64,000 bases of DNA, from contig NC_086108.1 in the NCBI RefSeq assembly GCF_963921235.1, positions 49,664,001 to 49,728,000 of the forward strand, written 5' to 3'. The position numbers were made by a program, and so were the translations under genes. The stretch comes from Mobula hypostoma (lineage: Eukaryota). How positions within the stretch are numbered: position 1 is the stretch's first letter; each line of letters opens with the position of its first letter. Below the pieces are notes generated by a model, which was given only the letters and a program-made list of their open reading frames with translations, did not search any database and had not been told where the DNA came from. Of this stretch, positions 6,725 to 63,707 are shown piece by piece.

Positions 6725-8570
6725 AGGTAATTATGGGAAAGGATGGATCTGGTCCTCAGGTTGAGATACTAAATTGAAAGGCCAATTTTGACGGTATCAG
6801 GAAGGATCTGGCAAATGTGGATTGGGACAGGTTGTTTTCTGGCAAAGGTGTACTTGGTAAATGCGAGGCCTTCAAAAGTGAAATTTTGAGAGTACAGAGT
6901 TCGTACGTTCCTGTCAGAACAAAAAGCAAGGAGAACAGGTTTACAGAACCTTGGTTTTCAAGATATTGAAGCCCTGGTTAAGAAAAAGGAGGAGGTGCAT
7001 AGCAGGTATAGTCAGACAGGAACAAATAAGATACTTGAGGAGCATAAGAAATGCAAGAGAACACTTAAGAAGGAAATCAGGAAGGCTAAAAGAAGACACG
7101 AGGTTGCTCTACCACTCGAGATGAGAGAGAATCCTAAGGGCTCCTGCAGATATTAAGAGCAAAAGGACAGCAAGGGACAAAATTGATCCTCGAGAAGATC
7201 AGAGTGGCAATCTATGTGTGGAGCTGAAAGAGATGGAGAAGATCTTAAATGGAATTTTTGTCTCTGTATTTATTTGGGAGATGGACACAGAGTCTACAGA
7301 TGTGTGGCAAAGCAGCAGTGATGTCATGAAGCCAATGCAATTTAGAGAGGAGCAGGTGCTTTCTGACGAGGCTAATTAGGGTGCACAAATCATCAGGGCC
7401 CGACAATGTGTTCCCTCAGACTCTGTGTGAGGCTCGTGCAGAAATTGCAGGGGCCCTAGCAGAGATATTTAAAATATCCTAAGCCACGGATGAAGTGTTG
7501 GAGGTTTGGAGGAGAGTTAATATTATCCGTTATTTCAGAAAGACTCTAAGAATAAATCAGGAAACTAAAGGCCAGTAAGCCTGACATCAGTTGTGAGAAG
7601 GTTATTGGACAGTATTCTAAGGGATAGATATACAAGTATTTTGATAGAAAGGGACTGATTATGTATAGTCAACATGGCTCTGTGCATGGTAAGTCACATC
7701 TAACAAACCTTATAGAATTTTTCAAGGAGATAACCAGGAAAGGTGATATAGGTAAGGCAGTGGATGGAGTCTACATGGACTTTAGCAAGGCCTTTGACAA
7801 GGTCCCACATGGGAGGTTGGTCAAGAAGGTTCAGTTGCTTGACAATGAAGATGTGGTAGTAGATTAGATTAGACATTAGTTTCACCAAAATAGCCAAAGA
7901 GTGATTGTATATTGGAGACCTGTGACTGGTGCTGCGCTGCAGGGATCTATGTTGGGTCCATCATCATTTGTCATCTATATCAATGATCTGAATAATAATA
8001 TGAAAACTTTATCAGCAAATTTATGAATGGCACGAAGATAGGTGGTGTAATGGACAGCAAGGAAGACTATCAAAGCTTGCAGTGGGATCTGGACCATTTG
8101 GTTAAATGGGCTGAAAAAGTGCAGATAGAAGGAATTTAATGCAGACAAGCCTCAGGTGGACCAACCAGGGTAGGTCTTACACAGTGAACAGTAGGGCACT
8201 GAGGAGTGTGGTAGAGTAGAGGGATCTGGGATATGTTGAAATTGTTTAAGACATTGGTGAGGCCTAATTTGGATTACTGTGTCTGGTTTTGGTCATCTAC
8301 CTACCGGAAAGATATAAATAAGATTGAAAGAATGCACAGAAATTTACAAGGATGTTGCTGGGACTTGAGGACCTGAGTTATAAGGAAAGGTTGAATACTG
8401 AGGGGAAATTTGAATGAGGTTTACAAGATTATGAGGTGTATAGGTAGGGTATGTGCAAACAGGCTTTTCCCACTGAGGTTAGGTGAGACTAGAACTAGAG
8501 GTCATGGGTTAAGGATGAAATTTAAGGGGAACCTGAAGGGGAACTTCTTCACTCAGAGGGTGGTCAGTGC
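6725..8570 (+). mobile_element. CR1 LINE ORF2 fragment (endonuclease-RT linker through RT), many stops and frameshifts
   Basis: ORF 7661-7867 SQHGSVHGKSHLTNLIEFF...VYMDFSKAFDKVPHGRL. ORF 8410+ VYKIMRCIGRV..NRLFP...FFTQRVV. Confidence 0.9.
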
Positions 8571-8579
8571 AAGTGGAGG

Positions 8580-9215
8580 ATGCTCCCGGTGCAGCCTCCT
8601 CTACATCAGTGAAACCCGACGCAGATTGGGGGACCGCTTCATCGAGCACCTCCGCTCCATCCGCCACAACAGACAGGATCTCCCAGTAGCCACCCACTTC
8701 AACTCTGCTTCCCACTCCCATTCAGATATGTCTATACATGGCCTCCTCTACTGCCATGATGAGGCTAAACTCAGGTTGGAGGAGCAACACCTCATATACC
8801 GTCTAGGTAGTCTCCAGCCCCTTGGTATGAACATAGAATTTTCCAACTTCCGGTAATTCCTCCCCCCCGCTCACTTCTCCTATCCCTATGTCACTCTGCC
8901 CCCTCCCCCAGCTGCCTATCACCTCCCTCATGGTTCCGCCTCCTTCTACTACCCATTGTGTTTTCCCCTATTTCTTCTTCACCTTTCCTGCCTATCACCT
9001 CCCTGCCTCCCCTCCCCCACCCCTTTATCTTTCCCTTTACTGGTTTTTCACCTGGAACCTACCAGCCTTCTCCTTCCAACCCTCCCCCACCTTCTTTATA
9101 GGGCCTCTGCCCCTTCCCTCTTCAGTCCTGACGAAGGGTTCCGGCCCAAAACGTTGACTGATCTTTTCCACGGATGCAGCCGACCTGCTGAGTTCCTCCA
9201 GCATGTTGTGAGTGT
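8580..9215 (+). mobile_element. Penelope-like element, 5'-truncated (GIY-YIG endonuclease C-terminus, pyrimidine-rich 3' UTR, terminal repeat with ribozyme motif)
   Basis: CSRCSLLYISETRRRLGDRFIEHLRSI...VATHFN...RLEEQHLIYRLGSLQPLGMNIEFSNFR* (stop ends 8856), closely similar to 27030-27356. Confidence 0.9.
9122..9161 (+). ncRNA. Hammerhead ribozyme motif (PLE-associated, core mutated)
   Basis: tcagtc-CTGACGA-agggttccggccc-aAAA-cgtt-gactga: 6-bp stem I (tcagtc/gactga), but GAAA>AAAA and GUC>GUU. Confidence 0.6.
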
Positions 9216-9919: not shown

Positions 9920-12900
9920 CAAAATGTGCAATTGTGGGGAGGGCTTTACCTGTGATGACGGACTGGGCTGTATTTTACCCGTGACGACGGACTGGACTGC
10001 ATTTTACCCGTGACGACGGACTGGGCTGTATCCATTACATTTTACCCGTGACGATGGACTAGGCTGCATTTTACCCGTGACGACGGACTGGACTGTATCC
10101 ATTACATTTTACCTGTGACGACGGACTGGGCTGTATCCATTACATTTTACCCGTGACGATGGACTAGGCTGCATTTTACCCATGACAACGGGCTGGACTG
10201 TATCCATTACATTTTACCTGTGACGACGGACTGGGCTGTATTTTACCCGTGACGATGGACTGGGCTGTATTTTACCCATGACGATGGACTGGACTGCATT
10301 TTACCTGTGACGACGGACTGGGCTGTATCCATAACATTTTACCCGTGACGATGGACTGGGCTGTATTTTACCCATGACGACGGACTGGGCTGCATCCATT
10401 ACATTTTACCCGTGACGACGGACTGGGCTGCATTTTACCTGTGACGATGGACTGGGCTGTATTTTACCCATGACGACGGACTGGGCTGTATCCATTACAT
10501 TTTACCCGTGACGATGGACTGGGCTGCATTTTACCCGTGACGACAGACTGGGCTGTATCCATTACGTTTTACCCGTGACGACGGACTGGGCTGTATCCAT
10601 TACGTTTTACCCGTGACGATGGACTGGGCTGTATCCATTACATTTTACCCATGACGATGGACTGGGCTGTATCCATTACATTTTACCCATGACGATGGAC
10701 TGGGCTGCATTTTACCCATGACGACGGACTAGGCTGCATCCATTACATTTTACCTGTGACGACGGACTGGGCTGCATTTTACCCGTGACGATGGACTGGG
10801 CTGTATTTTACCCGTGACGATGGACTGGGCTGTATCCATTACATTTTACCCGTGACGACGGACTGGGCTGTATCCATTACATTTTATCCGTGACGACGGA
10901 CTGGGCTGCATTTTACCCGTGACGATGGACTGGGCTGTATTTTACCCGTGATGATGGACTGGGCTGTATTTTACCCGTGACGATGGACTGGGCTGTATCC
11001 ATTACATTTTACCCGTGACGACGGACTGGGCTGTATCCATTACATTTTATCCGTGACGACGGACTGGGCTGCATTTTACCCGTGACGATGGACTGGGCTG
11101 TATTTTACCCGTTACGATGGACTGGGCTGTATCCATTACATTTTACCCGTGACGATGGACTGGGCTGTATCCATTACATTTTAACCGTGACGACGGACTG
11201 GGCTGTATCCATTACATTTTACCCATGACGACGGACTGGGCTGTATTTTACCCGTGATGACGGACTGGACTGTATCCATTACATTTTATCCGTGATGACG
11301 GACTGGGCTGTATTTTACCCATGACAACGGACTGGGCTGTATTTTACCCATGACGATGGACTGGACTGCATTTTACCCGTGACGACGGACTGGACTGTAT
11401 CCATTACATTTTACCCGTGATGACGGACTGGGCTGTATTTTACCCATGACAACGGGCTGGACTGTATCCATTACATTTTACCTGTGACGACGGACTGGGC
11501 TGTATTTTACCCGTGACGACGGACTGGGCTGTATTTTACCCATGACGATGGACTGGACTGCATTTTACCTGTGACGACGGACTGGGCTGTATCCATTACA
11601 TTTTACCCGTGACGATGGACTGGGCTGCATTTTACCCGTGACGACAGACTGGGCTGTATCCATTACGTTTTACCCGTGACGACGGACTGGGCTGTATCCA
11701 TTACGTTTTACCCGTGACGATGGACTGGGCTGTATCCATTACATTTTACCCATGACGATGGACTGGGCTGTATCCATTACATTTTACCCATGACGATGGA
11801 CTGGGCTGCATTTTACCCATGACGACGGACTAGGCTGCATCCATTACATTTTACCTGTGACGACGGACTGGGCTGCATTTTACATGTGACGATGGACTGG
11901 GCTGTATTTTACCCGTGACGATGGACTGGGCTGTATCCATTACATTTTACCCGTGACGACGGACTGGGCTGTATCCATTACATTTTATCCATGACGACGG
12001 ACTGGGCTGCATTTTACCCGTGACGATGGACTGGGCTGTATTTTACCCGTGATGATGGACTGGGCTGTATTTTACCCGTGACGACGGACTGGGCTGTATC
12101 CATTACATTTTACCCGTGACGACGGACTGGGCTGTATCCATTACATTTTATCCGTGACGACGGACTGGGCTGCATTTTACCCGTGACGATGGACTGGGCT
12201 GTATTTTACCCGTTACGATGGACTGGGCTGTATCCATTACATTTTACCCGTGACGATGGACTGGGCTGTATCCATTACATTTTAACCGTGACGACGGACT
12301 GGGCTGTATCCATTACATTTTACCCATGACGACGGACTGGGCTGTATGTTACCCGTGATGACGGACTGGACTGTATCCATTACATTTTACCCGTGATGAC
12401 GGACTGGGCTGTATTTTACCCATGACAACGGACTGGGCTGTATTTTACCCATGACGATGGACTGGACTGCATTTTACCCGTGACGACGGACTGGACTGTA
12501 TCCATTACATTTTACCCGTGATGACGGACTGGGCTGTATTTTACCCATGACAACGGGCTGGACTGTATCCATTACATTTTACCTGTGACGACGGACTGGG
12601 CTGTATTTTACCCGTGACGACGGACTGGGCTGTATTTTACCCATGACGATGGACTGGACTGCATTTTACCTGTGACGACGGACTGGGCTGTATCCATAAC
12701 ATTTTACCCGTGACGATGGACTGGGCTGTATTTTACCCATGACGACGGACTGGGCTGCATCCATTACATTTTACCCGTGACGACGGACTGGGCTGCATTT
12801 TACCTGTGACGATGGACTGGGCTGTATTTTACCCATGACGACGGACTGGGCTGTATCCATTACATTTTACCCGTGACGATGGACTGGGCTGCATTTTACC

Positions 12901-15310
12901 CGTGACGACAGACTGGGCTGTATCCATTACGTTTTACCCGTGACGACGGACTGGGCTGTATCCATTACGTTTTACCCGTGACGATGGACTGGGCTGTATC
13001 CATTACATTTTACCCATGACGATGGACTGGGCTGTATCCATTACATTTTACCCATGACGATGGACTGGGCTGCATTTTACCCATGACGACGGACTAGGCT
13101 GCATCCATTACATTTTACCTGTGACGACGGACTGGGCTGCATTTTACCCGTGACGATGGACTGGGCTGTATTTTACCCGTGACGATGGACTGGGCTGTAT
13201 CCATTACATTTTACCCGTGACGACGGACTGGGCTGTATCCATTACATTTTACCCGTGACGACGGACTGGGCTGCATTTTACCCGTGACGATGGACTGGGC
13301 TGTATTTTACCCGTGATGATGGACTGGGCTGTATTTTACCCGTGACGATGGACTGGGCTGTATCCATTACATTTTACCCGTGACGACGGACTGGGCTGTA
13401 TCCATTACATTTTATCCGTGACGACGGACTGGGCTGCATTTTACCCGTGACGATGGACTGGGCTGTATTTTACCCGTTACGATGGACTGGGCTGTATCCA
13501 TTACATTTTACCCGTGACGATGGACTGGGCTGTATCCATTACATTTTAACCGTGACGACGGACTGGGCTGTATCCATTACATTTTACCCATGACGATGGA
13601 CTGGGCTGTATCCATTACATTTTACCCGTGACGATGGACTAGGCTGCATTTTACCCGTGACGACGGACTGGGCTGTATCCATTATGTTTTACACGTGACG
13701 ACGGACTGGGCTGCATTTTACCCATGACGACGGACTGGGCTGTATCCATTACATTTTACCCGTGACGATGGACTAGGCTGCATTTTACCCATGACGATGG
13801 ACTGGGCTGTATCCATTACATTTTACCCATGATGACGGACTGGGCTGCATTTTACCCGTGACGACGGACTGGGCTGCATTTTACCCGTGACAACGGACTG
13901 GGCTGCATTTTACCTGTGACGACGGACTGGGCTGCATTTTACCTGTGACGACGGACTGGGCTGTATCCATAACATTTTACCCGTGACGATGGACTGGGCT
14001 GCATTTTACCCATGACGACGGACTGGGCTGTATTCATTACATTTTACCCATGACGACGGACTGGGCTGTATTCTACCCGTGACGACGGACTGGGCTGTAT
14101 CCATTACATTTTACCCGTGACGACGGACTGCGCTGTATTTTACTCGTGATGATGGACTGGGCTGCATTTTACCTGTGATGACGGACTGGGCTGTATCCAT
14201 AACATTTTACCCATGACGATGGACCGGGCTGCATTTTACCCATGACGATGGACTGGGCTGTATCCATTACATTTTACCCGTGACGATGGACTGGGCTGCA
14301 TTTTACCCGTGACGAAGGACTGGGCTGTATTTTACCCGTGACGACGGACTGGGCTGTATCCATTACGTTTTACCCGTGACGACGGACTGGGCTGCATTTT
14401 ACCCGTGACGACGGACTGGGCTGTATCCATTACATTTTACCCCTGACGACGGACTGGGCTGTATTTTACCCGTGATGACGGACTGGGCTGTATCCATTAC
14501 ATTTTACCCGTGACGACAGACTGGGCTGTATTTTACCCGTGACGACGGACTGGGCTGTATACATTACGTTTTACCCGTGACGACGGACTGGGCTGCATTT
14601 TACCCGTGACGACGGACTGGGCTGTATCCATTACGTTTTGCCCGTGACGACGGACTGGGCTGTATTTTACCCATGACGATGGACTGGACTGCATTTTACC
14701 TGTGACGACGGACTGGGCTGTATCCAAAACATTTTACCCGTGACGATGGACTGGGCTGTATTTTACCCGTGATGACGGACTGGGCTGTATCCATAACATT
14801 TTACCCATGACGATGGACCGGGCTGCATTTTACCCATGACGATGGACTGGGCTGTATCCATTACATTTTACCCGTGACGATGGACTGGGCTGCATTTTAC
14901 CCGTGACGAAGGACTGGGCTGTATTTTACCCGTGACGACGGACTGGGCTGCATCCATTACGTTTTACCCGTGACGACGGACTGGGCTGTATCCATTACAT
15001 TTTACCCATGACGACGGACTGGGCTGTATACATTACGTTTTACCCGTGACGACGGACTGGGCTGCATTTTACCCATGACGACGGACTGGGCTGCATTTTA
15101 CCCGTGACGACGGACTGGGCTGCATTTTACCCATGACGACGGACTGGGCTGTATCCATTACATTTTACCCGTGACGACGGACTGGGCTGTATTTTACCTG
15201 TGACGACGGACTGGGACTGGGCTGTATCCATTACGTTTTACCCGTGACGATGGACTGGGCTGTATCCATTACATTTTGTAGGCTTTTCCATTCAAAGACA
15301 TTGGTGTTTC
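9920..15310 (-). mobile_element. Short Rex1/Babar LINE ORF fragment hosting the minisatellite
   Basis: Minus-strand flanks read NTNVFEWKSLQNVMDTAQSIVTGK (right flank into the array) and TGKALPTIAHI (left flank), matching the post-RT 'LQ.V..TAQ.I.G..LP.I' motif of Rex1-type ORFs. Confidence 0.75.
9945..15277. repeat. 5.3-kb minisatellite of interspersed 29-bp (ttttacccgtgacgacggactgggctgYa) and 38-bp (with extra tccattaca) units, with higher-order structure
   Basis: Directly visible tandem array. Variant markers recur at 1101- and 1264-bp spacing. Confidence 0.98.
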
Positions 15311-23689: not shown

Positions 23690-26610
23690 CAAACCCTGCC
23701 TCCATATAACCCCCCACCTTAAATTCCTCCATATACCTGTCTCCATATAGTCTCTTAAACTTCACTAGTGTATCTGCCTCCACCACTGATTCAGGCAGTG
23801 CATTCCACGCACCAACCACTCTGGATAAAAATCCTCTAATATCTCCCTTGAACTTCCAACCCCTTATCTTAAAGCCATGTTCTCTTGTATTGAGCAGTGG
23901 TGCCCTGGGGAAGAGGCGCTGGCTATCCACTCTATCTATTCCTCTTAATACCTTGTACATCTCTCCAAAGAGTAAAACATTAGCTCCCTTAATCTCTGAT
24001 CATAATGCATACTCCCTAAACCACGCAGCATCCTGGTAAATCTCCTCTGTACCTTTTCCAATGCTTCTACAACCTTCCTACAGTGAGGCAACCAGAACTG
24101 GACTCAGCACTCCAAGTGTGACCTAACCAGAGTTTTATAGAGCTGCATCATTACATCGCGAGTCTTAAACTCTATTCCTCGACTTATGAAAGCTAACACC
24201 CCATAAGCTTTCTTAACTACCCTATCTACCTGTGAGGCAACTTTCAGTGATCTGTAGACATGTACTCCCAGATCCCTCTGCTCCTCCACTCTACCAAGTA
24301 TCCTGCCATTTACTTTGTACTCTGCCTTGGAGTTTGTCCTTCCAAAGTGTACCACCTCACACTTCTCTAGGTTGAACTCCATCTGCCACTTCTCAGCCCA
24401 CTTCTGCATCCTATCAATGTCTCTCTGCAATCTTTGACAACCCTCTACACTGTCTACAACACCACCAACCTTTGTGTCCTCTGCAAACTTGCCAACCCAC
24501 CCTTCAACCCCCACATCCAGGTTGTTAATAAAAATCACGAAAAGTAGAGGTCCCAGAACAGATCCTTGTGGGAGACCACTAGTCACATCCCTCCAATCTG
24601 AACGTACTCCCTCCACCACGACCCTCTGCCTTCTGCAGGCAAGCCAATTCTGAAACCACCTGGCCAAACTTCCCTGGATCCCATGCCTTCTGACTTTCTG
24701 AATAAGCCTACCACGTGGAACCTTGTCAAATGCCTTACTAAAATCCATGTAGATCACATACACTGCACTACCCTCATCTATATGCCTGGTCACCTCCTCA
24801 AAGAACTCTATCAGGCTTGTTAGACACGATCTGCCCTTCAACAAAGCCATGCTGACTGTACCTGATCAGACCATGATTCTCTAAATGCCCATAGATCCTA
24901 TCTCTAAGAATCTTTTCCAACAGCTTTCCCACCACAGACGTAAGGCTCACTGGTCTATAATTACCCAGACTATCCCTACTACCTTTTTTGAACAAGGGGA
25001 CAACATTCGTCGCTCTCCAATCTTCCGGGACAACGAGGACATAAAGATCCTAGCCATTCCCGTGGACAACGAGGACATAAAGATCCTAGCCAGAGGCTCA
25101 GCAATCTCTTTCCTCGCCTTGTGGAGCAGCCTGGGGAATATTCTGTCACACCCCGGGGACTTATCCGTCCTAATGTATTTTAACAACTCCAACACCTCCT
25201 CTCCCTTAATATCTACATGCTCCAGAACATCAACCTCACTCATATTGTCCTCACCGTCATCAAATTCCCTCTCATTGGTGAATACTGAAGAAAAGTATTC
25301 ATTGAGGACCTCACTAACTTCCACAGCCTGCAGGCATTATCTTCCCACCTTTATCTCTAATCGGTCCTACCTTCACTCCTGTCGTCCTTTTGTTCTTCAC
25401 ATAATTGAAGAATGCCTTGGGATTTTACTTTACCCTACTCACCAAGGCCTTCTCATGCCCCCTTCTTGCTCTTCTCAGCCCCTTCTTAAGCTCCTTTCTT
25501 GCTACCCTATATTCTTCAATAGACCTATCTGATCTTTGCTTCCTAAACCTCATGTATGCTGCCTTCTTCCACCTGACTAGATTTTCCACCTCACTTGTCA
25601 CCCATGGTTCCTTCACCCTACCATTCTTTATCTTCCTCACCGGGACAAATTTATCCCTAAACATCGACCACATGTCCATAGTACATTTCCCTGCAAAAGC
25701 ATCATCCCAGTTCACACCCGCAAGTTCTAGCTTTATAGCCTCATAATTTGCCCTTCTCCAATTAAAAATTTTCCTGTCCTCTCTGATTCTATCCTTTTCC
25801 ATGATAATGCTAAAGGCCAGGGAGCGGTGGTCACTGTCCCCCAGATGCTCACCCACTGAGAGATCTGTGACCTGACCCGGTTCATTACCTAGTACTAGAT
25901 CTAGTATGGTATTCCTCCTAGTCGGTCTGTCAACATACTGTGACAGGAATCCGTCCTGGACACACTTAACAAATTCTGCCCCATCTAAATCCTTGGAACT
26001 AATCAGGTGCCAATCAATATTAGGGAAGTTAAAGTCACCCATGATAACAACCCTGTTATTTTTGCACCTTTCCAAAATCTGCCTCCCAATCTGCTCCTCT
26101 GTATCTCTGCTGCTACCAGGGGGCCTATAGAATACTCCCAATAGAGTATCTGCTCCCCTCCTGTTCCTGACTTCCACCCATACTGACTCAAAGGAGGATA
26201 CTGCTACATTACCCACCCTTTCTGTAGCTGTAATAGTATCCCTGACCAGTAATGCCACCCACCCACCTCCCCCTTTTCCCCCCCTCTCTATCCCTTTTAA
26301 AGTACTGAAATCCAGGAATATTGAGAATCCATTCCTGCCCTGGTGCCAGCCAAGTCTCTGTAATGGCCACTACATCATAATTCCATGTATGTATCCAAGC
26401 TCTCAGTTCATCACCTTTGTTCCTGATGCTTCTTGCATTGAAGTACACGCACTTTAGCCCTTCTACCTTACTACCTTTACACCCTTTATTCTGCTTCTCT
26501 TTCCTCAAAGCCTCTCTATATGTTACATCAGGCTTTACTCTACGCACTTCTTTCACTGCTCTATCGCTCCGGGTCCCATCCCCCTTGCAAATTAGTTTAA
26601 ACCCTCCCAA
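23690..26610 (-). pseudogene. CR1 ORF2 (APE endonuclease plus reverse transcriptase), frameshifted
   Basis: YFNARSIRNK..VAITETWL; GVFYRPP..MGDFNFPNIDW..ILDLVL..SDH; KSPGCDRIFPRLL; NYRPVSLTSVVGKLLE; YMDFSKAFDKV; GLPQGSVLGPLLF..KFAEDTK. Split over at least six ORFs. Confidence 0.95.
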
Positions 26611-26638
26611 ACCATGCTAGCAAACCTACCTGCAAGGA

Positions 26639-28365
26639 ACACACATCAAAGTTGCTGGTGAACACAGCAGGCCAAGCAGCATCTATAGGAAGAGGCGCAG
26701 TCGACGTTTCAGGCTGAGACCCTTCGTCAGGACTAACTGAAGGAAGAGTGAGTAAGGGATTTGAAAGCTGGAGGGGGAGGGGGAGATGCAAAATGATAGG
26801 AGAAGACAGGAGGGGGAGGGATAGAGCCGAGAGCTGGACAGGTGATAGGCAAAAGGGGATACGAGAGGATCATGGGACAGGAGGTCCGGGAAGAAAGACG
26901 GGGGGGGGGGGTGACCCAGAGGATGGGCAAGAGGTATATTCAGAGGGACAGAGGGAGAAAAAGGAGAGTGAGAGAAAGAATGTGTGTATTAAAATAAATA
27001 ACGGATGGGGTACGAGGGGGAGGTGGGGCCTAGCGGAAGTTAGAGAAGTCGATGTTCATGCCATCAGGTTGGAGGCTACCCAGACGGAATATAAGGTGTT
27101 GTTCCTCCAACCTGAGTGTGGCTTTATCTTTACAGTAGAGGAGGCCGTGGATAGACATGTCAGAATGGGAATGGGATGTGGAATTAAAATGTGTGGCCAC
27201 TGGGAGATCCTGCTTTCTCTGGCGGACAGAGCGTAGATGTTCAGCAAAGCGGTCTCCCAGTCTGCGTCGGGTCTCACCAATATATAAAAGGCCACATCGG
27301 GAGCACCGGACGCAGTATATCACCCCAGTCGACTCACAGGTGAAGTGATGCCTCACCTGGAAGGACTGTTTGGGGCCCTGAATGGTGGTAAGGGAGGAAG
27401 TGTAAGGGCATGTGTAGCACTTGTTCCGCTTACACGGATAAGTGCCAGGAGGGAGATCAGTGGGGAGGAATGGGGGGGACGAATGGACAAGGGAGTTGTG
27501 TAGGGAGCGATCCCTGCGGAATGCAGAGAGGGGGGGGAGGGAAAGATGTGCTTAGTGGTGGGATCCCGTTGGAGGTGGCGGAAGTTACGGAGAATAATAT
27601 GTTGGACCCGGAGGCTGGTGGGGTGGTAGGTGAGGACCAGGGGAACCCTATTCCTAGTGGGGTGGTGGGAGGATGGAGTGAGAGCAGATGTACGTGAAAT
27701 GGGGGAGATGCGCTTAAGAGCAGAGTTGATAGTGGAGGAAGGGAAGCCCCTTTCTTTAAAAAATGAAGACATCTCCCTCGTCCTAGAATGAAAAGCCTCA
27801 TTCTGAGAGCAGATGCGGCGGAGACGGAGGAATTGCGAGAAGGGGATGGCGTTTTTGCAAGAGACAGGGTGAGAAGAGGAATAGTCCAGATAGCTGTGAG
27901 AGTCAGTAGGCTTATAGTAGACATCAGTGGATAAGCTGTCTCCAGAGACAGAGACAGAAAGATCTAGAAAGGGGAGGGAGGTGTCGGAAATGGACCAGGT
28001 AAACTTGAGGGCAGGGTGAAAGTTGGAGGCAAAGTTAATAAAGTCAACGAGTTCTGCATGCGTGCAGGAAGCAGCGCCAATGCAGTCGTCGATGTAGCGA
28101 AGGAAAAGTGGGGGACAGATACCAGAATAGGCACGGAACATAGATTGTTCCACAAATCCAACAAAAAGGCAGGCATAGCTAGGACCCATACGGGTGCCCA
28201 TAGCTACACCTTTAGTTTGGAGGAAATGGGAGGAGCAAAAGGAGAAATTATTAAGAGTGAGGACTAATTCCGCTAGACGGAGCAGAGTGGTGGTATAGGG
28301 GAACTGATTAGGTCTGGAATCCAAAAAGAAGCGTAGAGCTTTGAGACCTTCCTGATGGGGGATGG
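26639..28365 (-). mobile_element. Penelope-like retroelement (RT C-terminal half plus GIY-YIG), 5'-truncated, TSD aagga
   Basis: SIPHQEGL..LAELVLTLNNFSF..QTKGVAMGTRMGPSYACLFVG..LRYIDDC..LPFLDL..YYKPTDSHSYLDYSSSHP. GVIYCVRCSRCGLLYIGETRRRL (27030-27356). One frameshift at the G-run near 27530. aagga at 26634-26638 and 28366-28370. Confidence 0.95.
26699..26734 (-). ncRNA. Minimal type-I hammerhead ribozyme, intact core
   Basis: Minus strand: agtc-CTGACGA-agg(gtctcag)cct-GAAA-c-GTC-gact. Stem I agtc/gact, stem II agg/cct, palindromic ACGT stem III. Confidence 0.8.
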
Positions 28366-28690
28366 AAGGATATTGCTCCCCCTCGAGTTCAGGTGCAACC
28401 CATCCAATCTGTACAGGTCCCATCTTCCCCAGAGGAGATCCCAATGATCCAAAAACCTAAAACCCTGCTCCCTACACCAACTCCTCAGCCACGCATTCAA
28501 CTGCCATCTCCTCCAATTCTTACCATCACTATCACGTAGCAATCCTGAGAACGCCACCCTTGAAGTCCTGATCATCAGCCTTTTGCCTAGTTCCCGAAAC
28601 TCACACTTTAGGACCTCATCCCTCTTCCTGCCTATGTCGTTGGTACCAACATGTATCACAACTTCTGGTTGCTTTCCCTCTCGTACCAAG

Positions 28691-28726
28691 ATTATTGTGC
28701 TGCATCTCTGAATAAATAAATAAAAT
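28691..28726 (+). mobile_element. V-SINE 3' tail (continuation of 23408-23620)
   Basis: attattgtgctgcatctctgaataaataaataaaat completes the SINE tail gggccagaagggccc-attatt-gtgctg. Confidence 0.8.
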
Positions 28727-41489: not shown

Positions 41490-41900
41490 AGAGTTTCATT
41501 GGAATCCTTTCTGGGAAGGTATGTCCTAAACAAGGGGGACAGATTTCACCTGAACCCAAGGGGAACCAATATCCTTGCAGGCAAGTTTGCTAGAACTATT
41601 GGGGAGGGTTTAAACTAATTTGGCAAGTGGATGGGAGCCAGAGTGATAGGGCTGAGGATGGTTCTTGATTAGCCAGAGGGTGGTGAATCTGTGGAATTCA
41701 TTGCCACTGGCAGCTATGGAGGCCCGATCATTGAGTGTATTTAAGATGGAGGTTCATAGATTCTTGGTAAGTCAGGGTGTGAAAGGTTACAGGGAGAAGG
41801 CAGGAAAATGGGGTTGAGAGAGAAATGGATCCGCCAGATCAAATGGCAGAAGAGATTCAATGGGCTGAATGGCCCAACTCTGCTCCTGTGTCTCCTATGC
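41490..41900 (+). mobile_element. CR1 ORF1 end joined directly to a CR1 3' end
   Basis: HLNPRGTNILAGKFARTIGEGLN* (about 41545-41620), then ccagagggtggtgaatctgtggaattc...gggctgaatggcccaactctgctcct. Confidence 0.75.
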
Positions 41901-42165: not shown

Positions 42166-42465
42166 GTTGGGAGTAGACTGGGGAGCAGGGGCAGAGAACA
42201 AACAATGGAGGTTGGTGGTAAGCATTAGACAGTTGATGAGCAGACTGATGATAGGGGCAGGGCAGAGTTGGGCTAGGGTGTTCAGATGGAAAAGTGCTCT
42301 TCATTCCACTTATGTATAAGTAGGATAGACATTCATCTGTGGATTCAACACATCACACTCCTCAGTCCTTCCGAAGGGTCTCAGCCTGATGTGTTGACTG
42401 TGCTCTTTTCCACAGTATCTACCTGGCCTGCTTGGTTCCTCCAGCATTTTGTGTGTGTTGCTTAC
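42165..42465. mobile_element. PLE terminal fragments (inverted pair) with a degenerate hammerhead motif at 42362-42400
   Basis: cagtccttccgaagggtctcagcctgatgtgttgactg...cctccagcattttgtgtgtgttgct on plus. Purine-rich inverted 3'-UTR-like piece upstream. Confidence 0.6.
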
Positions 42466-56689: not shown

Positions 56690-57400
56690 CAACTAAACTA
56701 TTCCCTTCTGCCTGTACAATATCCCATATCCTTCCATTCCTGCACATTCACATGCCTTAGAGAGTCTTGAACCTCATTTGCCTCCACCACCACCCCAGGC
56801 ACCCAGCACTCACTGTGTAAAAAAAAACTTGACCACGGTACATTTCTTTTGAACATACTTTAAATAAAGGGAAAAAGATACTCCCTGTCTAATCTAACTA
56901 TACCTCTCATCATCTTAAAAACCTCTATCAGATCTCCCCTCTGTCTCCACTGCTCCAGAGAAAACAACCTAAGCTTGTCCAACCTCTTATCATGGCACAT
57001 ACCCTCTAATCCAAGCAGCATTCTGGGAAGTCTCTTCTGCAACCCCCCCCCCCCAAGTCTCAACCTCCTCCCTATAAAGGGACAACTTGTAGTGAATACA
57101 ATATTCCATCTGCAGCCTAGCTAAGCTTTATATAGCTGCAATCTTGGCCCAAAACATTGACTGTTTACTCTTTTCCACAGATGTTGCCTGGCCTGCTGAG
57201 TTCCTCCAGCATTTTGTGTGTGTTCCTGACTCTTATACTCAGCTCCTCCAGTACTGAAGCCAAACATGCCTTATGCCTTCTCTACCACTCTATACCATGT
57301 GTAGCCACTTTCAGAGAGCTATGGACCCCAAGATCCCTCTGTACATCAACACTGTTAAGGGTCTTACTATTGATCTACTTCCCACTCTGTCCTTTGCCAG
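56690..57400 (-). mobile_element. CR1 3' fragment with an inserted short PLE piece (57142-57223, plus strand)
   Basis: ORF 56860-57063 RLDKLRLFSLEQWRQRGDLIEVFKMMRG. Insert tcttggcccaaaacattgactg...cattttgtgtgtg. Confidence 0.8.
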
Positions 57401-59867: not shown

Positions 59868-61391
59868 TCACAAACAAGAGAAAATCTGCAGGTGCTGGAA
59901 ATCCAAGCAACTCACACAAAATGCTGGAGGAACTCAGCAGGCCAGGCAGCACCTACGGAAAAAAGTGCAGCCGATATTTCAGTCCGAGACCCTTCATCAA
60001 GACTGGAGGAAAAAATATGAGTCGGAGTTAGAAGCTGGGGGAGGAGAGGAAGAAACACAAGGCGATAGGTGAAAGTGGGAGGGGGTTGCAGTAAAGAGCT
60101 TGGAAGTTGATTGGTGAAAGAGAAACAGGGCTGGAGAAGGGGGAATCTAATAGGAGAGGACAGAAGGCCATGGAAGAAAGAAAAGGGGGAAGGAGCAGCA
60201 GAGGGAGTTGATGGGCAGACAAAGAGATAAGAAGAGAGAGGGAAATAGGAATGGGGAACGGTGAAGGGGGAGTGGGGGGATTACCAGAAGTTCGAGAGAT
60301 TGATGTTCATGCCATCAGGTTGGAGGCTGCCCAGATGGAATATAAGGTGTTGCTCCTCCAACCTGAGTGTGGCCTCATCGCGGCAGTAGAGGAGGTCATG
60401 GACTGACATATTGGAATGGAAATGGGAAGTGAAATTTAAATGGTTGGCCACAGGGAGATCACACTTTTTCTAGCAGATGGAGCATAGGTGCCTGACAAAG
60501 TGGTCTCCCAATCTACGTTGAGTCTCACTGATATACAGGAGGCCACACTGGGAGCACCAGACACAGTATATGAGCCCAAAAGACTCACAGGTGAAATGTC
60601 ATCTCAGCTGGAAGGAGTGTTTAGGGCCCTGAATTATAGTGAGGGAGGAGGTGTAGGGGCAGATGTAGCATTTGCTCCGCTTGCAAGGATAAGTGCCAGG
60701 AGGGAGATCAGTGGGGAGGGATGAATGGACAAGTGTAGAGAGCAATCCCTGTGGGAAGCAGAAAGTCGAGGGGCAGGGAAAGATGTGCTTGATGGTGGGA
60801 TCCCATTGGAAATGCTCTGTCTCTATCTCTAGAGACAGCTTATCTACTGATGTCTATTATAAACCCACTGACTCTCACAACTTCTGGATTATATCTCTTC
60901 CCACCCAGTCACCTGAAAAAACACCACCCCCTTCTCTCAATTCCTCTGTCTCCACTGCTTCTGCTCTCCATATGATGCTTTTCAGTCCAAACGAAGGAGA
61001 TGTCCTCCTTCTTCAAAGGAAGGGCCTTCCCTTCCTCACCTATCAACCGCATCTCTTCCATTTCACACACATCTACCCTCATTCCATCCTCCCGCCACAC
61101 TACCAGGGATAGAGTTCCTCTTGTCCTCACCTACCACCCTACCAGCCTCTGCATCCGGCACATAACTTGCTGTAACTTCCGCCATCTCCAACGGGATCCC
61201 ACCACCAAGCACATCTTTCCCTTCCTCCCACTTCCCGCTTTCTGCTTTCCGCAGGGATCGCTCCCTATACGACTCACTTATCCATTCATCCCTCCCCACT
61301 GATCTCCCTCTTGGCACTTATCCTTGTAAGTAGAACAAGTACTACACCTGCCCTTATACCTCCTCCCTCACTACCATTCAGAGCCCCAAAC
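59868..61391. mobile_element. Penelope-like element with inverted architecture (minus arm 59868-60813, plus arm 60814-61391)
   Basis: Minus arm: terminal repeat, degenerate hammerhead (about 59968-60005), GIY-YIG. Plus arm: RDSLSTDVYYKPTDSH..MSSFFK.R.FPSS..RVPLVLTYHPTSL..RHLQRDPTTKHIFP. Confidence 0.9.
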
Positions 61392-63602
61392 TCCCACTTC
61401 CACTCTTACAAACAGACTTGGCAACATTTTGGCATCAGGATCAATGATATCCTGTTGGACTTTTCATCATAAATAACCTTCATACTTGAAGAATGACCAT
61501 TATAGCCAAGTCCAGAGGTGACAAATTTTTGAGAGTGTGTCTAAATTGGAGATAATCTTCTAAAAAAGATCTCTCAGATGCTTGGTAAGTTTGAACAGAG
61601 ATGATCACTGATCAATGAATCAGTAATAATAACAGACCTTAATTATATACAACTCAAGTTTTGCAGAAATAATAGCCAATCGGTATTCCAATATCATCAC
61701 CACACTCAAAGGGTAATGAAGGGTACACCAGGCAAACTGTACATCACTTTTCAATTTAGAAACAAGAATATGCCAATAATTTTGGCAGCACACTATGGTG
61801 TTCGGTCTAACGACACTAAGATGACATTTAGCATCTTGTATTTAGCTACAAGATTATCCTCCAATGAAATCAATGGAAGCAATTCTGGACATTCCTGCAC
61901 CATGAGATTAGCAGATGCAGAGGATGAATTTCTACTGATCTCCTTGTACTGCAGCCTTCCTGACAGCAGTACAAATTTGAAATTGTGGGTGCCTAATATT
62001 TTTAAGCTATGACAAACTGATGTCTAATTACACTGTCACTCACAGTGAACAAAAACATAATCATCCCATGGACATTTAAGCACCTTGGAGATACATTGCT
62101 CTTGCCAGAATGGTCATCAACACAGTTGAAAATTCAGAGACGTTTCTTCTTTTTTAAAAAGATATGTCACACTTTTGACAGCTATTATTAGTTTCTAATG
62201 TTTGTATAAGACACAAACTGAATGAATCCCTTCTGGCAACACGACTGTAGCATTTACACGAGGTCTCTGATTTACACTTTCATTAAATTGCCTTTTTTCT
62301 CTACTTGCTGCACTAAGAAAATAGATAATGTCAAGAAGGTCTTTTAATTCATGACTCCAATTCTTTAACCAAAGCCTAGAAATTAGATTGTGTAATGATT
62401 TTATTTCATCATTATGCAATGAAGGCTCTTTTAGTTCAAAGATGAGATGTAATAATCATCGTTCAATCTGCAACTGCTGGCCATGTCTTTGCATTGGGCA
62501 CCCATGGATACCTCTGTTCCTCTTGCATTCCATTTATGATATCAGATGGCCCTCTTCCAGAACTGACTACCATTGGACAGTCTTACACAGTACTCGTTTG
62601 GGCTTGTGTCCCTATTTACTCTGAAGCTCTGCTGTCACCTTTCTGACAACCACATGACACAACTCTATTGCTCTTCCCACAAAGGGCCAAGCCTCTACCT
62701 AGCCTCAGTGGAAAACCTGAATTCCATATCTCTCCTTTGGCCACATTCCACCACTCCACCTCAACCTTGCCCATCTAGCTGATTGCTATCTCATTTACAA
62801 GGACTGATCTTGCTTTGCTTATCTTGCATTGTTCCTCATTCCCAACGTTGCCCTTTGGCTTAGAGTTGTTGTCCTCTCACCCTTGCCCCAGACTTGGATA
62901 CAGGGAATACATTTTGGACAATGGAAATGTGCAATGTTCTTTCAGTAAGAGGCCAGACCTTGAGTACCACTGAAATCTGTAGACGGGGTCCATGACAGAA
63001 TCCTTCATGAGTGCTTTGTATAATGACTGTCCAGCCCTCCTAGAATTTCTAGGCATATTATTTCCAGCAGTTGTCATTGGATGATCAGGTGGGGAGCTTG
63101 GACAGTTCCCGTTCTGCAGCACAGGGGTGTGAAAGGAAATTACAACTCTGTATCACCTATTGGTCGAGCTCAGAGCAAAACAGATGTCTGTGGTTTTGTT
63201 TGCACATATTTTTTCCAAAGTACATGGACTTGGACTAGGATGGTAAAACTGGCTTTAAGGGGCCAAATAACTACTTGTGTTGCAATATTCTTCCAGCCCT
63301 CAACAAGTCTCACTCTCACCTTATTGTTCTGCCTCAGCACTTCAGCAGTCCTTGCATTTAGCTCTGAACAAAATACAACATGGATAGGAGGATATGGGAT
63401 AGTCTGCACGCAGTATGTCTCTCTTTAGTGGAGAGAGTGTTGAAAGCCGCTCTCACGGAAGAGGATGAAAGTACAGGCTGAAGCTTCTCTCTCTCTCACG
63501 TAGCAAGTTCACACACAGCATTTTATATCCTGCTCGGCAATGGGGCAGAGTGCCAGGAGGCCCAGAAAGGGAGGAAGCTCAATATGATTCCGAACAAATT
63601 AT

Positions 63603-63707
63603 TCCTGACGAAGGGTCTCGGCCTGAAACGTCTCGACTGCACCTCTTCCTACAGATGCTGCCTGGCCTGCTGCGTTCACCAGCAACTTTGATGTGTGTCG
63701 CTTCAAT
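63603..63707 (+). mobile_element. Solo, roughly 100-bp PLE terminal fragment beginning at the hammerhead core
   Basis: tcCTGACGAagggtctcggcctGAAAcGTCtcgactgcacctcttcctacagatgctgcctggcctgctgcgttcaccagcaactttgatgtgtgt, nearly identical to the reverse complement of 26639-26732. Confidence 0.9.

Follow-up and report, generated by a model that had tools for sequence, protein, structure and literature searches.

A dead, 5′-truncated Penelope-like element of the ray Mobula hypostoma carries a minimal type-I hammerhead motif in its pseudo-LTR

Analysis of a 64,000-nt stretch of the Mobula hypostoma genome (hereafter the window) revealed, on its minus strand, a motif that we consider very probably to be a minimal type-I hammerhead. 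It is located in the only pseudo-LTR, the 3′ one, of a dead, 5′-truncated and frameshifted Penelope-like element (PLE) of putative Neptune type, 1.73 kb long and inserted in a CR1 LINE. On the same reading, the motif is likely to cleave only when two copies pair through a palindromic ACGU or when a protein of the element refolds it, and the lone copy at this locus likely does not cut. The element has defined boundaries and a 5-bp target-site duplication, and its hammerhead is conserved across subfamilies and covaries among relatives.

Comparison with an uninterrupted CR1 copy (~41496-41652) placed the PLE near the end of the ORF1 esterase of the host LINE (Table 1). The focal element retains the order of RT followed by a C-terminal GIY-YIG endonuclease (EN). 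The two parts have no internal stops and occupy two frames, with one frameshift between them in a C-run at ~27530-27540 that may be a homopolymer sequencing error. Missing from it are the 5′ portion of the ORF and any pseudo-LTR upstream; only the 3′ copy of the pseudo-LTR, in which the hammerhead is located, is present at the locus. From the EN stop (27032-27030) to stem I we counted 295 nt, in agreement with the ~300 nt given by the first-pass annotation of this DNA.

Table 1. Features of the PLE insertion, its hammerhead motif and the surrounding CR1 LINE (window coordinates).
Feature	Position	Strand	Basis or remark
PLE insertion as a whole	~28365-26639	minus	1.73 kb; comparison with uninterrupted CR1 copy
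C-terminal part of RT and thumb of PLE, contains YIDD	27530..28365	minus	homology; 5′-truncated at ~28365
Cys-rich linker (CKRNKCYTC, CX2-5CxxC type) and GIY-YIG endonuclease, TAG stop	27030..27536	minus	PF01541, E 9.4e-5
Pyrimidine-rich 3′ UTR, remainder of pseudo-LTR region	26736..27029	minus	80% C+T
Minimal type-I hammerhead motif	26698..26735	minus	sequence, descriptor, folding, alignment with relatives
Stem I	26735-26731 paired with 26702-26698	minus	
Core CUGACGA	26730-26724	minus	
Unpaired A	26723	minus	
Stem II	26722-26719 paired with 26714-26711	minus	
GAAA	26710-26707	minus	
Palindromic ACGU	26707-26704	minus	
C17	26703	minus	predicted cut 26703^26702
3′ end of element beyond hammerhead	26639..26697	minus	64 nt counted from cut site
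5-bp target-site duplication, 5′ copy	28366..28370	minus	empty CR1 site ~41572-41576
5-bp target-site duplication, 3′ copy	26634..26638	minus	empty CR1 site ~41572-41576
Host CR1-type LINE, GDSL esterase part of ORF1	28371..28712	minus	PF13472, E 9.8e-11; left boundary approximate
Host CR1-type LINE, last part of ORF1 and ORF2 with frameshift (APE endonuclease, RT)	24104..26633	minus	domain matches; right-hand end provisional

The best named homologues of the RT and EN come from Chiloscyllium and Stegostoma (66-70% identity), and in a comparison of the RT with a protein of Mobula hypostoma 188/205 residues (92%) are identical. These matches bear out the earlier attribution to an elasmobranch PLE family. 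A cysteine-rich CX2-5CxxC linker between RT and EN marks Neptune-like PLEs (PMC3846280, PMC8557442). Judged by its linker motif, CKRNKCYTC, the focal element would be an EN+ Neptune-type PLE.

The minus strand at 26734-26699 reads AGUC CUGACGA A GGGU CUCA GCCU GAAA CGUC GACU and thus contains the type-I hammerhead core (CUGANGA ... GAAA ... UH), with C3 at 26730, G8 at 26725, A9 at 26724, G12 at 26710, A15.1 at 26707, U16.1 at 26704 and C17 at 26703. These letters agree with the complete core and GUC triplet described by the first-pass annotation, and the predicted cut coincides with the one it had put between 26703 and 26702. Stem I AGUC/GACU is likewise present and can be extended by a U.G pair (26735/26698), and helix III consists, as had been said, of the ACGU palindrome without loop 3 (positions 15.2-16.2), the arrangement required of PLE minimal hammerheads. 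Three CpGs are retained in the motif. Stem II, earlier drawn as AGG/CCU, proved to be off by one base: in the 38-nt monomer folded with RNAfold, U26711 pairs with G26722 (P=0.96) rather than with A26723 (P=0.02), so that GGGU pairs with GCCU. The shifted pair is found in 16/16 aligned motifs (13 GC, 3 GU; see below for the alignment), the earlier A:U pair in 3/16. The unpaired A26723, an extra nucleotide after A9, has counterparts in the relatives and is one listed mark of PLE minimal hammerheads (PMC4209133). The closing pair G10.1-C11.1 is G.U in the focal copy and two other window copies and G-C in 13 of the 16 aligned motifs; pairing at 10.1/11.1 is therefore kept in the focal subfamily and its usual identity is not. 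Loop II of the focal copy carries a minority A, G accounting for 72-91% of summed contig depth.

We next asked how often such a motif occurs by chance. The bare core pattern was matched four times in the window; the mean over shuffles was 1.17, and 2/100 shuffles reached four. A descriptor combining the core, stems I and II, C.G/UH and the minimal helix III, composed after the motif had been seen, matched the window once, at the focal motif, and had no match in 300 dinucleotide shuffles. Folding energy of the motif is unremarkable (z -0.97). Of the structural searches, proposed as a check in the first-pass annotation, our own descriptor gave this unique match; the Rfam models gave no match at gathering score and no hammerhead family at E up to 10. 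The Rfam hammerhead models expect helix III. The exact ray-motif pattern was absent from the viral contigs and the metagenome contigs scanned, and a protein scan of viral contigs found no relative among 74 candidates.

A scan of metagenome contigs confirmed 480 relatives, from which 80 loci (40-62% protein identity) were kept. The descriptor identified 13 sense and 4 antisense motifs in these loci, and a motif lay within 700 nt after the endonuclease in 9 of the 32 loci with room there. We aligned 16 motifs, comprising 12 of these 17 (five were dropped, their families being already represented) and four of the six window copies (the two most decayed were dropped). In stems I and II, 44 of 144 cells were changed on both sides, a level reached by 0/500 shuffles in a set that was itself selected for pairing, since 12 of its members were picked by the core-and-stem descriptor. 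In a core-only control with 23 sense matches in the 80 loci, stem II was fully paired (3/3) in the bulged register in 16/23 and in the unbulged register in 1/23, and stem I (3/3) in 15/23. Covariation of core and stems across family copies, the lack of which the first-pass annotation had counted among its refuting outcomes, exists as compensatory changes among distant relatives; two-sided stem changes were absent among five window copies. A model built from the 16 motifs gave 37 matches at E<0.01 in 32/80 loci, its own 12 training motifs included, and four in the window (all training copies), with a fifth at 0.054.

The catalytic core is near-invariant among the aligned motifs, 12 of them descriptor-picked, and the stems change freely. 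This pattern argues against the possibility that the motif is kept for a non-catalytic reason, such as an RNA fold bound by protein or a constraint from a promoter or the ORF start, or is a mere passenger of the PLE. The same can be said of PAc, a Poseidon element of Anolis carolinensis (Frangieh et al. 2024, PMC11167929), whose motif cleaves with protein and for which C3G/G8C rescue was demonstrated. Metazoan minimal hammerheads are only weakly active in vitro (PMC4209133) and Naiad elements proliferate without canonical hammerheads (PMC8557442), which would fit a non-catalytic role; we nevertheless regard it as unlikely.

Within the ray family, the hammerhead block is identical to the focal copy at 30-31 of 38 positions in three copies of other subfamilies (the figure is alignment-dependent); in the same copies, identity is 4-7/13 over the next 13 nt downstream and 13-19/35 over the 35 nt upstream. 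A fourth such copy, which starts inside the motif, is identical at 23/38. The last 47 nt of the element are also common to subfamilies (30-35/47 identical in the same three copies, 30-36/47 when a fourth is included); for a conserved fold of the 64 nt beyond the cut there was no support (z-scores 1.06, 0.10, 0.48 and -1.74). Comparison with public runs used contigs from 4 of 23 listed runs, none of the 23 being recorded as RNA, and summed depth was not taken as copy number. Among the loose ends listed (24 of 2325), contig alignments break off at the stem I edges 26698 and 26734 (299 and 261 in run X22, 75 and 55 in run X5). One variant place falls in the motif among the 40 listed of 214, and it is in loop II. 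One contig of run X1 starts at 26703; it was set aside, as contig ends fall at branch points.

The first-pass annotation had put the hammerhead at the 3′ terminus of the element. We found instead that the boundary of the element lies at 26639/26638, with 64 nt between it and the cut site; a loose contig end at 26638 in run X5 agrees with this position. Five other copies of the PLE 3′ end are present in the window (at 63599, 59904, 42364, 9080 and 57170), and all six reach about the same end, some 64 nt past the cut site and in every case at least 60 nt; family-level statistics rest on these six window copies, public contigs and distant relatives. Because of these 64 nt beyond the cut, the inserted 3′ end of the focal element was not produced by cleavage, and since the window copies extend past the site, the RNA that was copied was continuous across it. 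It is thus improbable that the hammerhead serves as a working 3′-end processing module whose cut defines the end of the retrotransposed RNA, even though the core is intact, the CpGs of the motif are retained and such a role was tentatively proposed in PMC4209133. The idea that the cut is the source of the inserted 3′ end is contradicted by the shared ends downstream of the site, found in relatives as well; moreover, insertion of PAc was normal when its hammerhead was mutated, and its main substrate was RNA that had not been processed (PMC11167929).

One related family (L008, L009, L010, L020, L025, L036, L037, L038, L061 and L080) shows by eye two end positions, one ~60-70 nt past the cut site and the other at the end of a further shared extension, often in an inverted 5′ copy. 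In the window, an older PLE copy at 59870-61391, with its 5′ part inverted (60816-61391 on the plus strand), continues ~38 nt beyond the usual end; this stretch occurs once in the window and may be an optional PLE tail. A truncated copy of another subfamily (EN, UTR and a hammerhead with G12->A and C17->U) lies at 8467-9210 on the plus strand. At 9945-15277 lies a 5.3-kb satellite in which 29- and 38-nt units are intermixed; its higher-order periods are 67 and 163 nt, and there are several CpGs within its units.

Three short window copies begin, by eye, at or inside the hammerhead, and none at the cut site. One of them, 63599-63698 (plus strand), is a solo 100-nt copy of hammerhead and tail, 92% identical to the focal element, that starts at the 5′ edge of the motif and has 2 nt inserted precisely where the cut is predicted. 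The other two, at 42360-42460 and ~57145-57225 (both plus strand), are decayed and begin at or inside the hammerhead, which suggests frequent 5′ truncation there. The 2-nt insertion could be read as a ligation scar if retrotransposition used hammerhead-cut, re-ligated circular RNA, on which reverse transcription would start 64 nt past the ligated junction and cross it first. Circular templates were proposed in PMC4209133 and are compatible with copies that are continuous across the site. Against them, such an insertion occurs in one of the six window copies, none was seen by eye at the cut site in the 37 model matches of related loci, and the contigs show no indel at 26702/26703 among the nine listed at a share of at least 5%. 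The added TC, a duplication, may also be simple slippage, and we consider the circular template highly improbable for this family.

Folding calculations bear on the conditions under which the motif could cleave. In the computed ensemble of the 38-nt monomer, an off-path hairpin that pairs core G5-G8 with the CGUC around the cut site dominates (P=0.98), and the fold with stems I and II and a free core has P ~1e-3 (-7.0 vs -11.0 kcal/mol for the hairpin). The ACGU self-duplex contributes a computed -1.7 kcal/mol only, and in a nearest-neighbour model, which ignores tertiary contacts, a dimer fold built by hand reaches -11.5, far short of the -25.2 of the cofold minimum. Given this weak duplex and unfavourable dimer fold, protein or tertiary contacts would have to assist the dimer. 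Published work describes single minimal motifs as inactive and dimers as weakly active (PMC4209133), and a tandem layout may favour dimers (review PMC6765202). With PAc, the one PLE protein assayed in vitro, cleavage depended on the protein, and insertion did not need cleavage (PMC11167929). A mechanism along these lines, in which the lone monomer would prefer the off-path hairpin and cleavage would probably require either pairing of two copies through ACGU or refolding by the element protein, is the one we favour.

In active tandem units, the motif would stand at the start of the downstream unit, where a cut would free unit-length RNA; it would presumably cut rarely, leaving uncut RNA as the template. 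Reverse transcription would then start ~64 nt downstream of the cut site and copy through it, and the RNA behind the focal insertion would have been continuous across the site and, most simply, never cut. In PAc, reverse transcription begins internally, downstream of the hammerhead (PMC11167929), and by this analogy the last part of the ray element (26639..26697) is likely where it starts. The 5′ placement and role are drawn from relatives at 40-62% protein identity, namely three loci (L035, L040 and L024) whose motif is placed at the ORF start or immediately before it; in L040 the core contains the first ATG. No full-length or tandem copy of the focal ray family was seen. Two of the relatives, L035 (310-3726) and L040 (260-3406), are full-length related PLE ORFs; counted from stop to stop they have 1139 and 1049 codons, their N-terminal extensions are long, and a hammerhead stands at the ORF start. 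The ends of their contigs are repeated, as would be expected of tandem or collapsed units.

Following the example of the D. virilis intron (PMC2377424), we also considered whether the region acts as a splice acceptor, through the pyrimidine tract and a YAG at 26684-26683 or through the AG in stem I, and rejected this as unsupported. The UTR is 80% pyrimidine and six of its eight AGs are acceptor-like; the AG is absent in one of six window copies and in most L008-type copies, there is no donor-like site in the focal UTR, and no matching joint was present among the 15 listed of 449. Nor was there a sign of a host transcript: in a comparison of 18 long frames with Pfam for host exons, one match was obtained, to ALKBH8_N, which we take to be a common mark of LINE-derived sequence.

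The focal subfamily is fairly young, because CpG observed/expected is 0.55 in the PLE coding part (0.28 in the host CR1, 0.25 in the background), internal stops are absent and the 5-bp duplication is intact. In two older PLE copies the ratio is 0.24 and 0.33. In run X1, whose species may differ, 1932 of 15173 compared contigs are at least 99% alike to the focal copy, and the majority depth differs from it at 18 of the 40 variant places listed of 214. The focal copy itself is dead, being 5′-truncated and frameshifted. Of the young and recently active family claimed earlier, youth thus holds for the subfamily and activity does not extend to this copy. The window contains no intact same-strand partner, as the sole other same-strand copy is 33 kb away and has C3 changed; the focal copy therefore likely never cuts.

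Cervera and De la Pena (2014, PMC4209133) described hammerheads in PLE pseudo-LTRs, among them those of Neptune elements of fishes. The focal subfamily differs from the minimal hammerhead given there in having U at position 11.1 (a G.U closing pair), and from the Schistosoma motifs in a helix II of 4 bp instead of 7-8 bp. Shark or ray terms do not occur in two supplementary files of that paper. PAc and the ray PLE are alike in carrying the hammerhead near the unit boundary and in having genomic ends downstream of the cut. They differ in clade, PAc belonging to Poseidon and the ray element having a Neptune-type linker, and in that the PAc ORF starts in stem II (PMC11167929), whereas the focal ray core reads CUGACGA and the same frame stops 14 codons later. 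The PAc study found no RNA-seq ends at the cut site. Non-LTR retrozymes of vertebrates (bioRxiv 10.64898/2026.07.22.740005) have type-I hammerheads related to PLE pseudo-LTRs, like the ray motif; they are non-coding tandem arrays, whereas the ray motif stands alone and is joined to RT-EN coding sequence. In the window the focal motif forms no tandem array, the feature by which a non-LTR retrozyme would be recognised. Among the 31 vertebrates of the same preprint is one chondrichthyan, for which retrozymes are reported; Neptune and Poseidon PLEs are reported there from five classes of vertebrates. In the literature on shark and ray hammerheads and PLEs outside subscription journals, we found no paper devoted to the focal ray family.

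The ray motif thus belongs to a class already described in 2014 and is a correct but ordinary catch. It has little importance by itself, since some vertebrates have minimal hammerheads by the thousand, with ~4,000 in the genome of the coelacanth and ~9,000 in that of Xenopus tropicalis (PMC4209133). The wider question is the in vivo role of PLE hammerheads, to which a dead copy gives no answer; the abundant ray family, whose ends are well defined and lie 64 nt beyond the cut, lends itself to counts of scars at the cut site or of RNA ends. If retrotransposition did proceed through circular templates, a tally of scars across thousands of copies in the genome would document cleavage by a PLE hammerhead in vivo for the first time.
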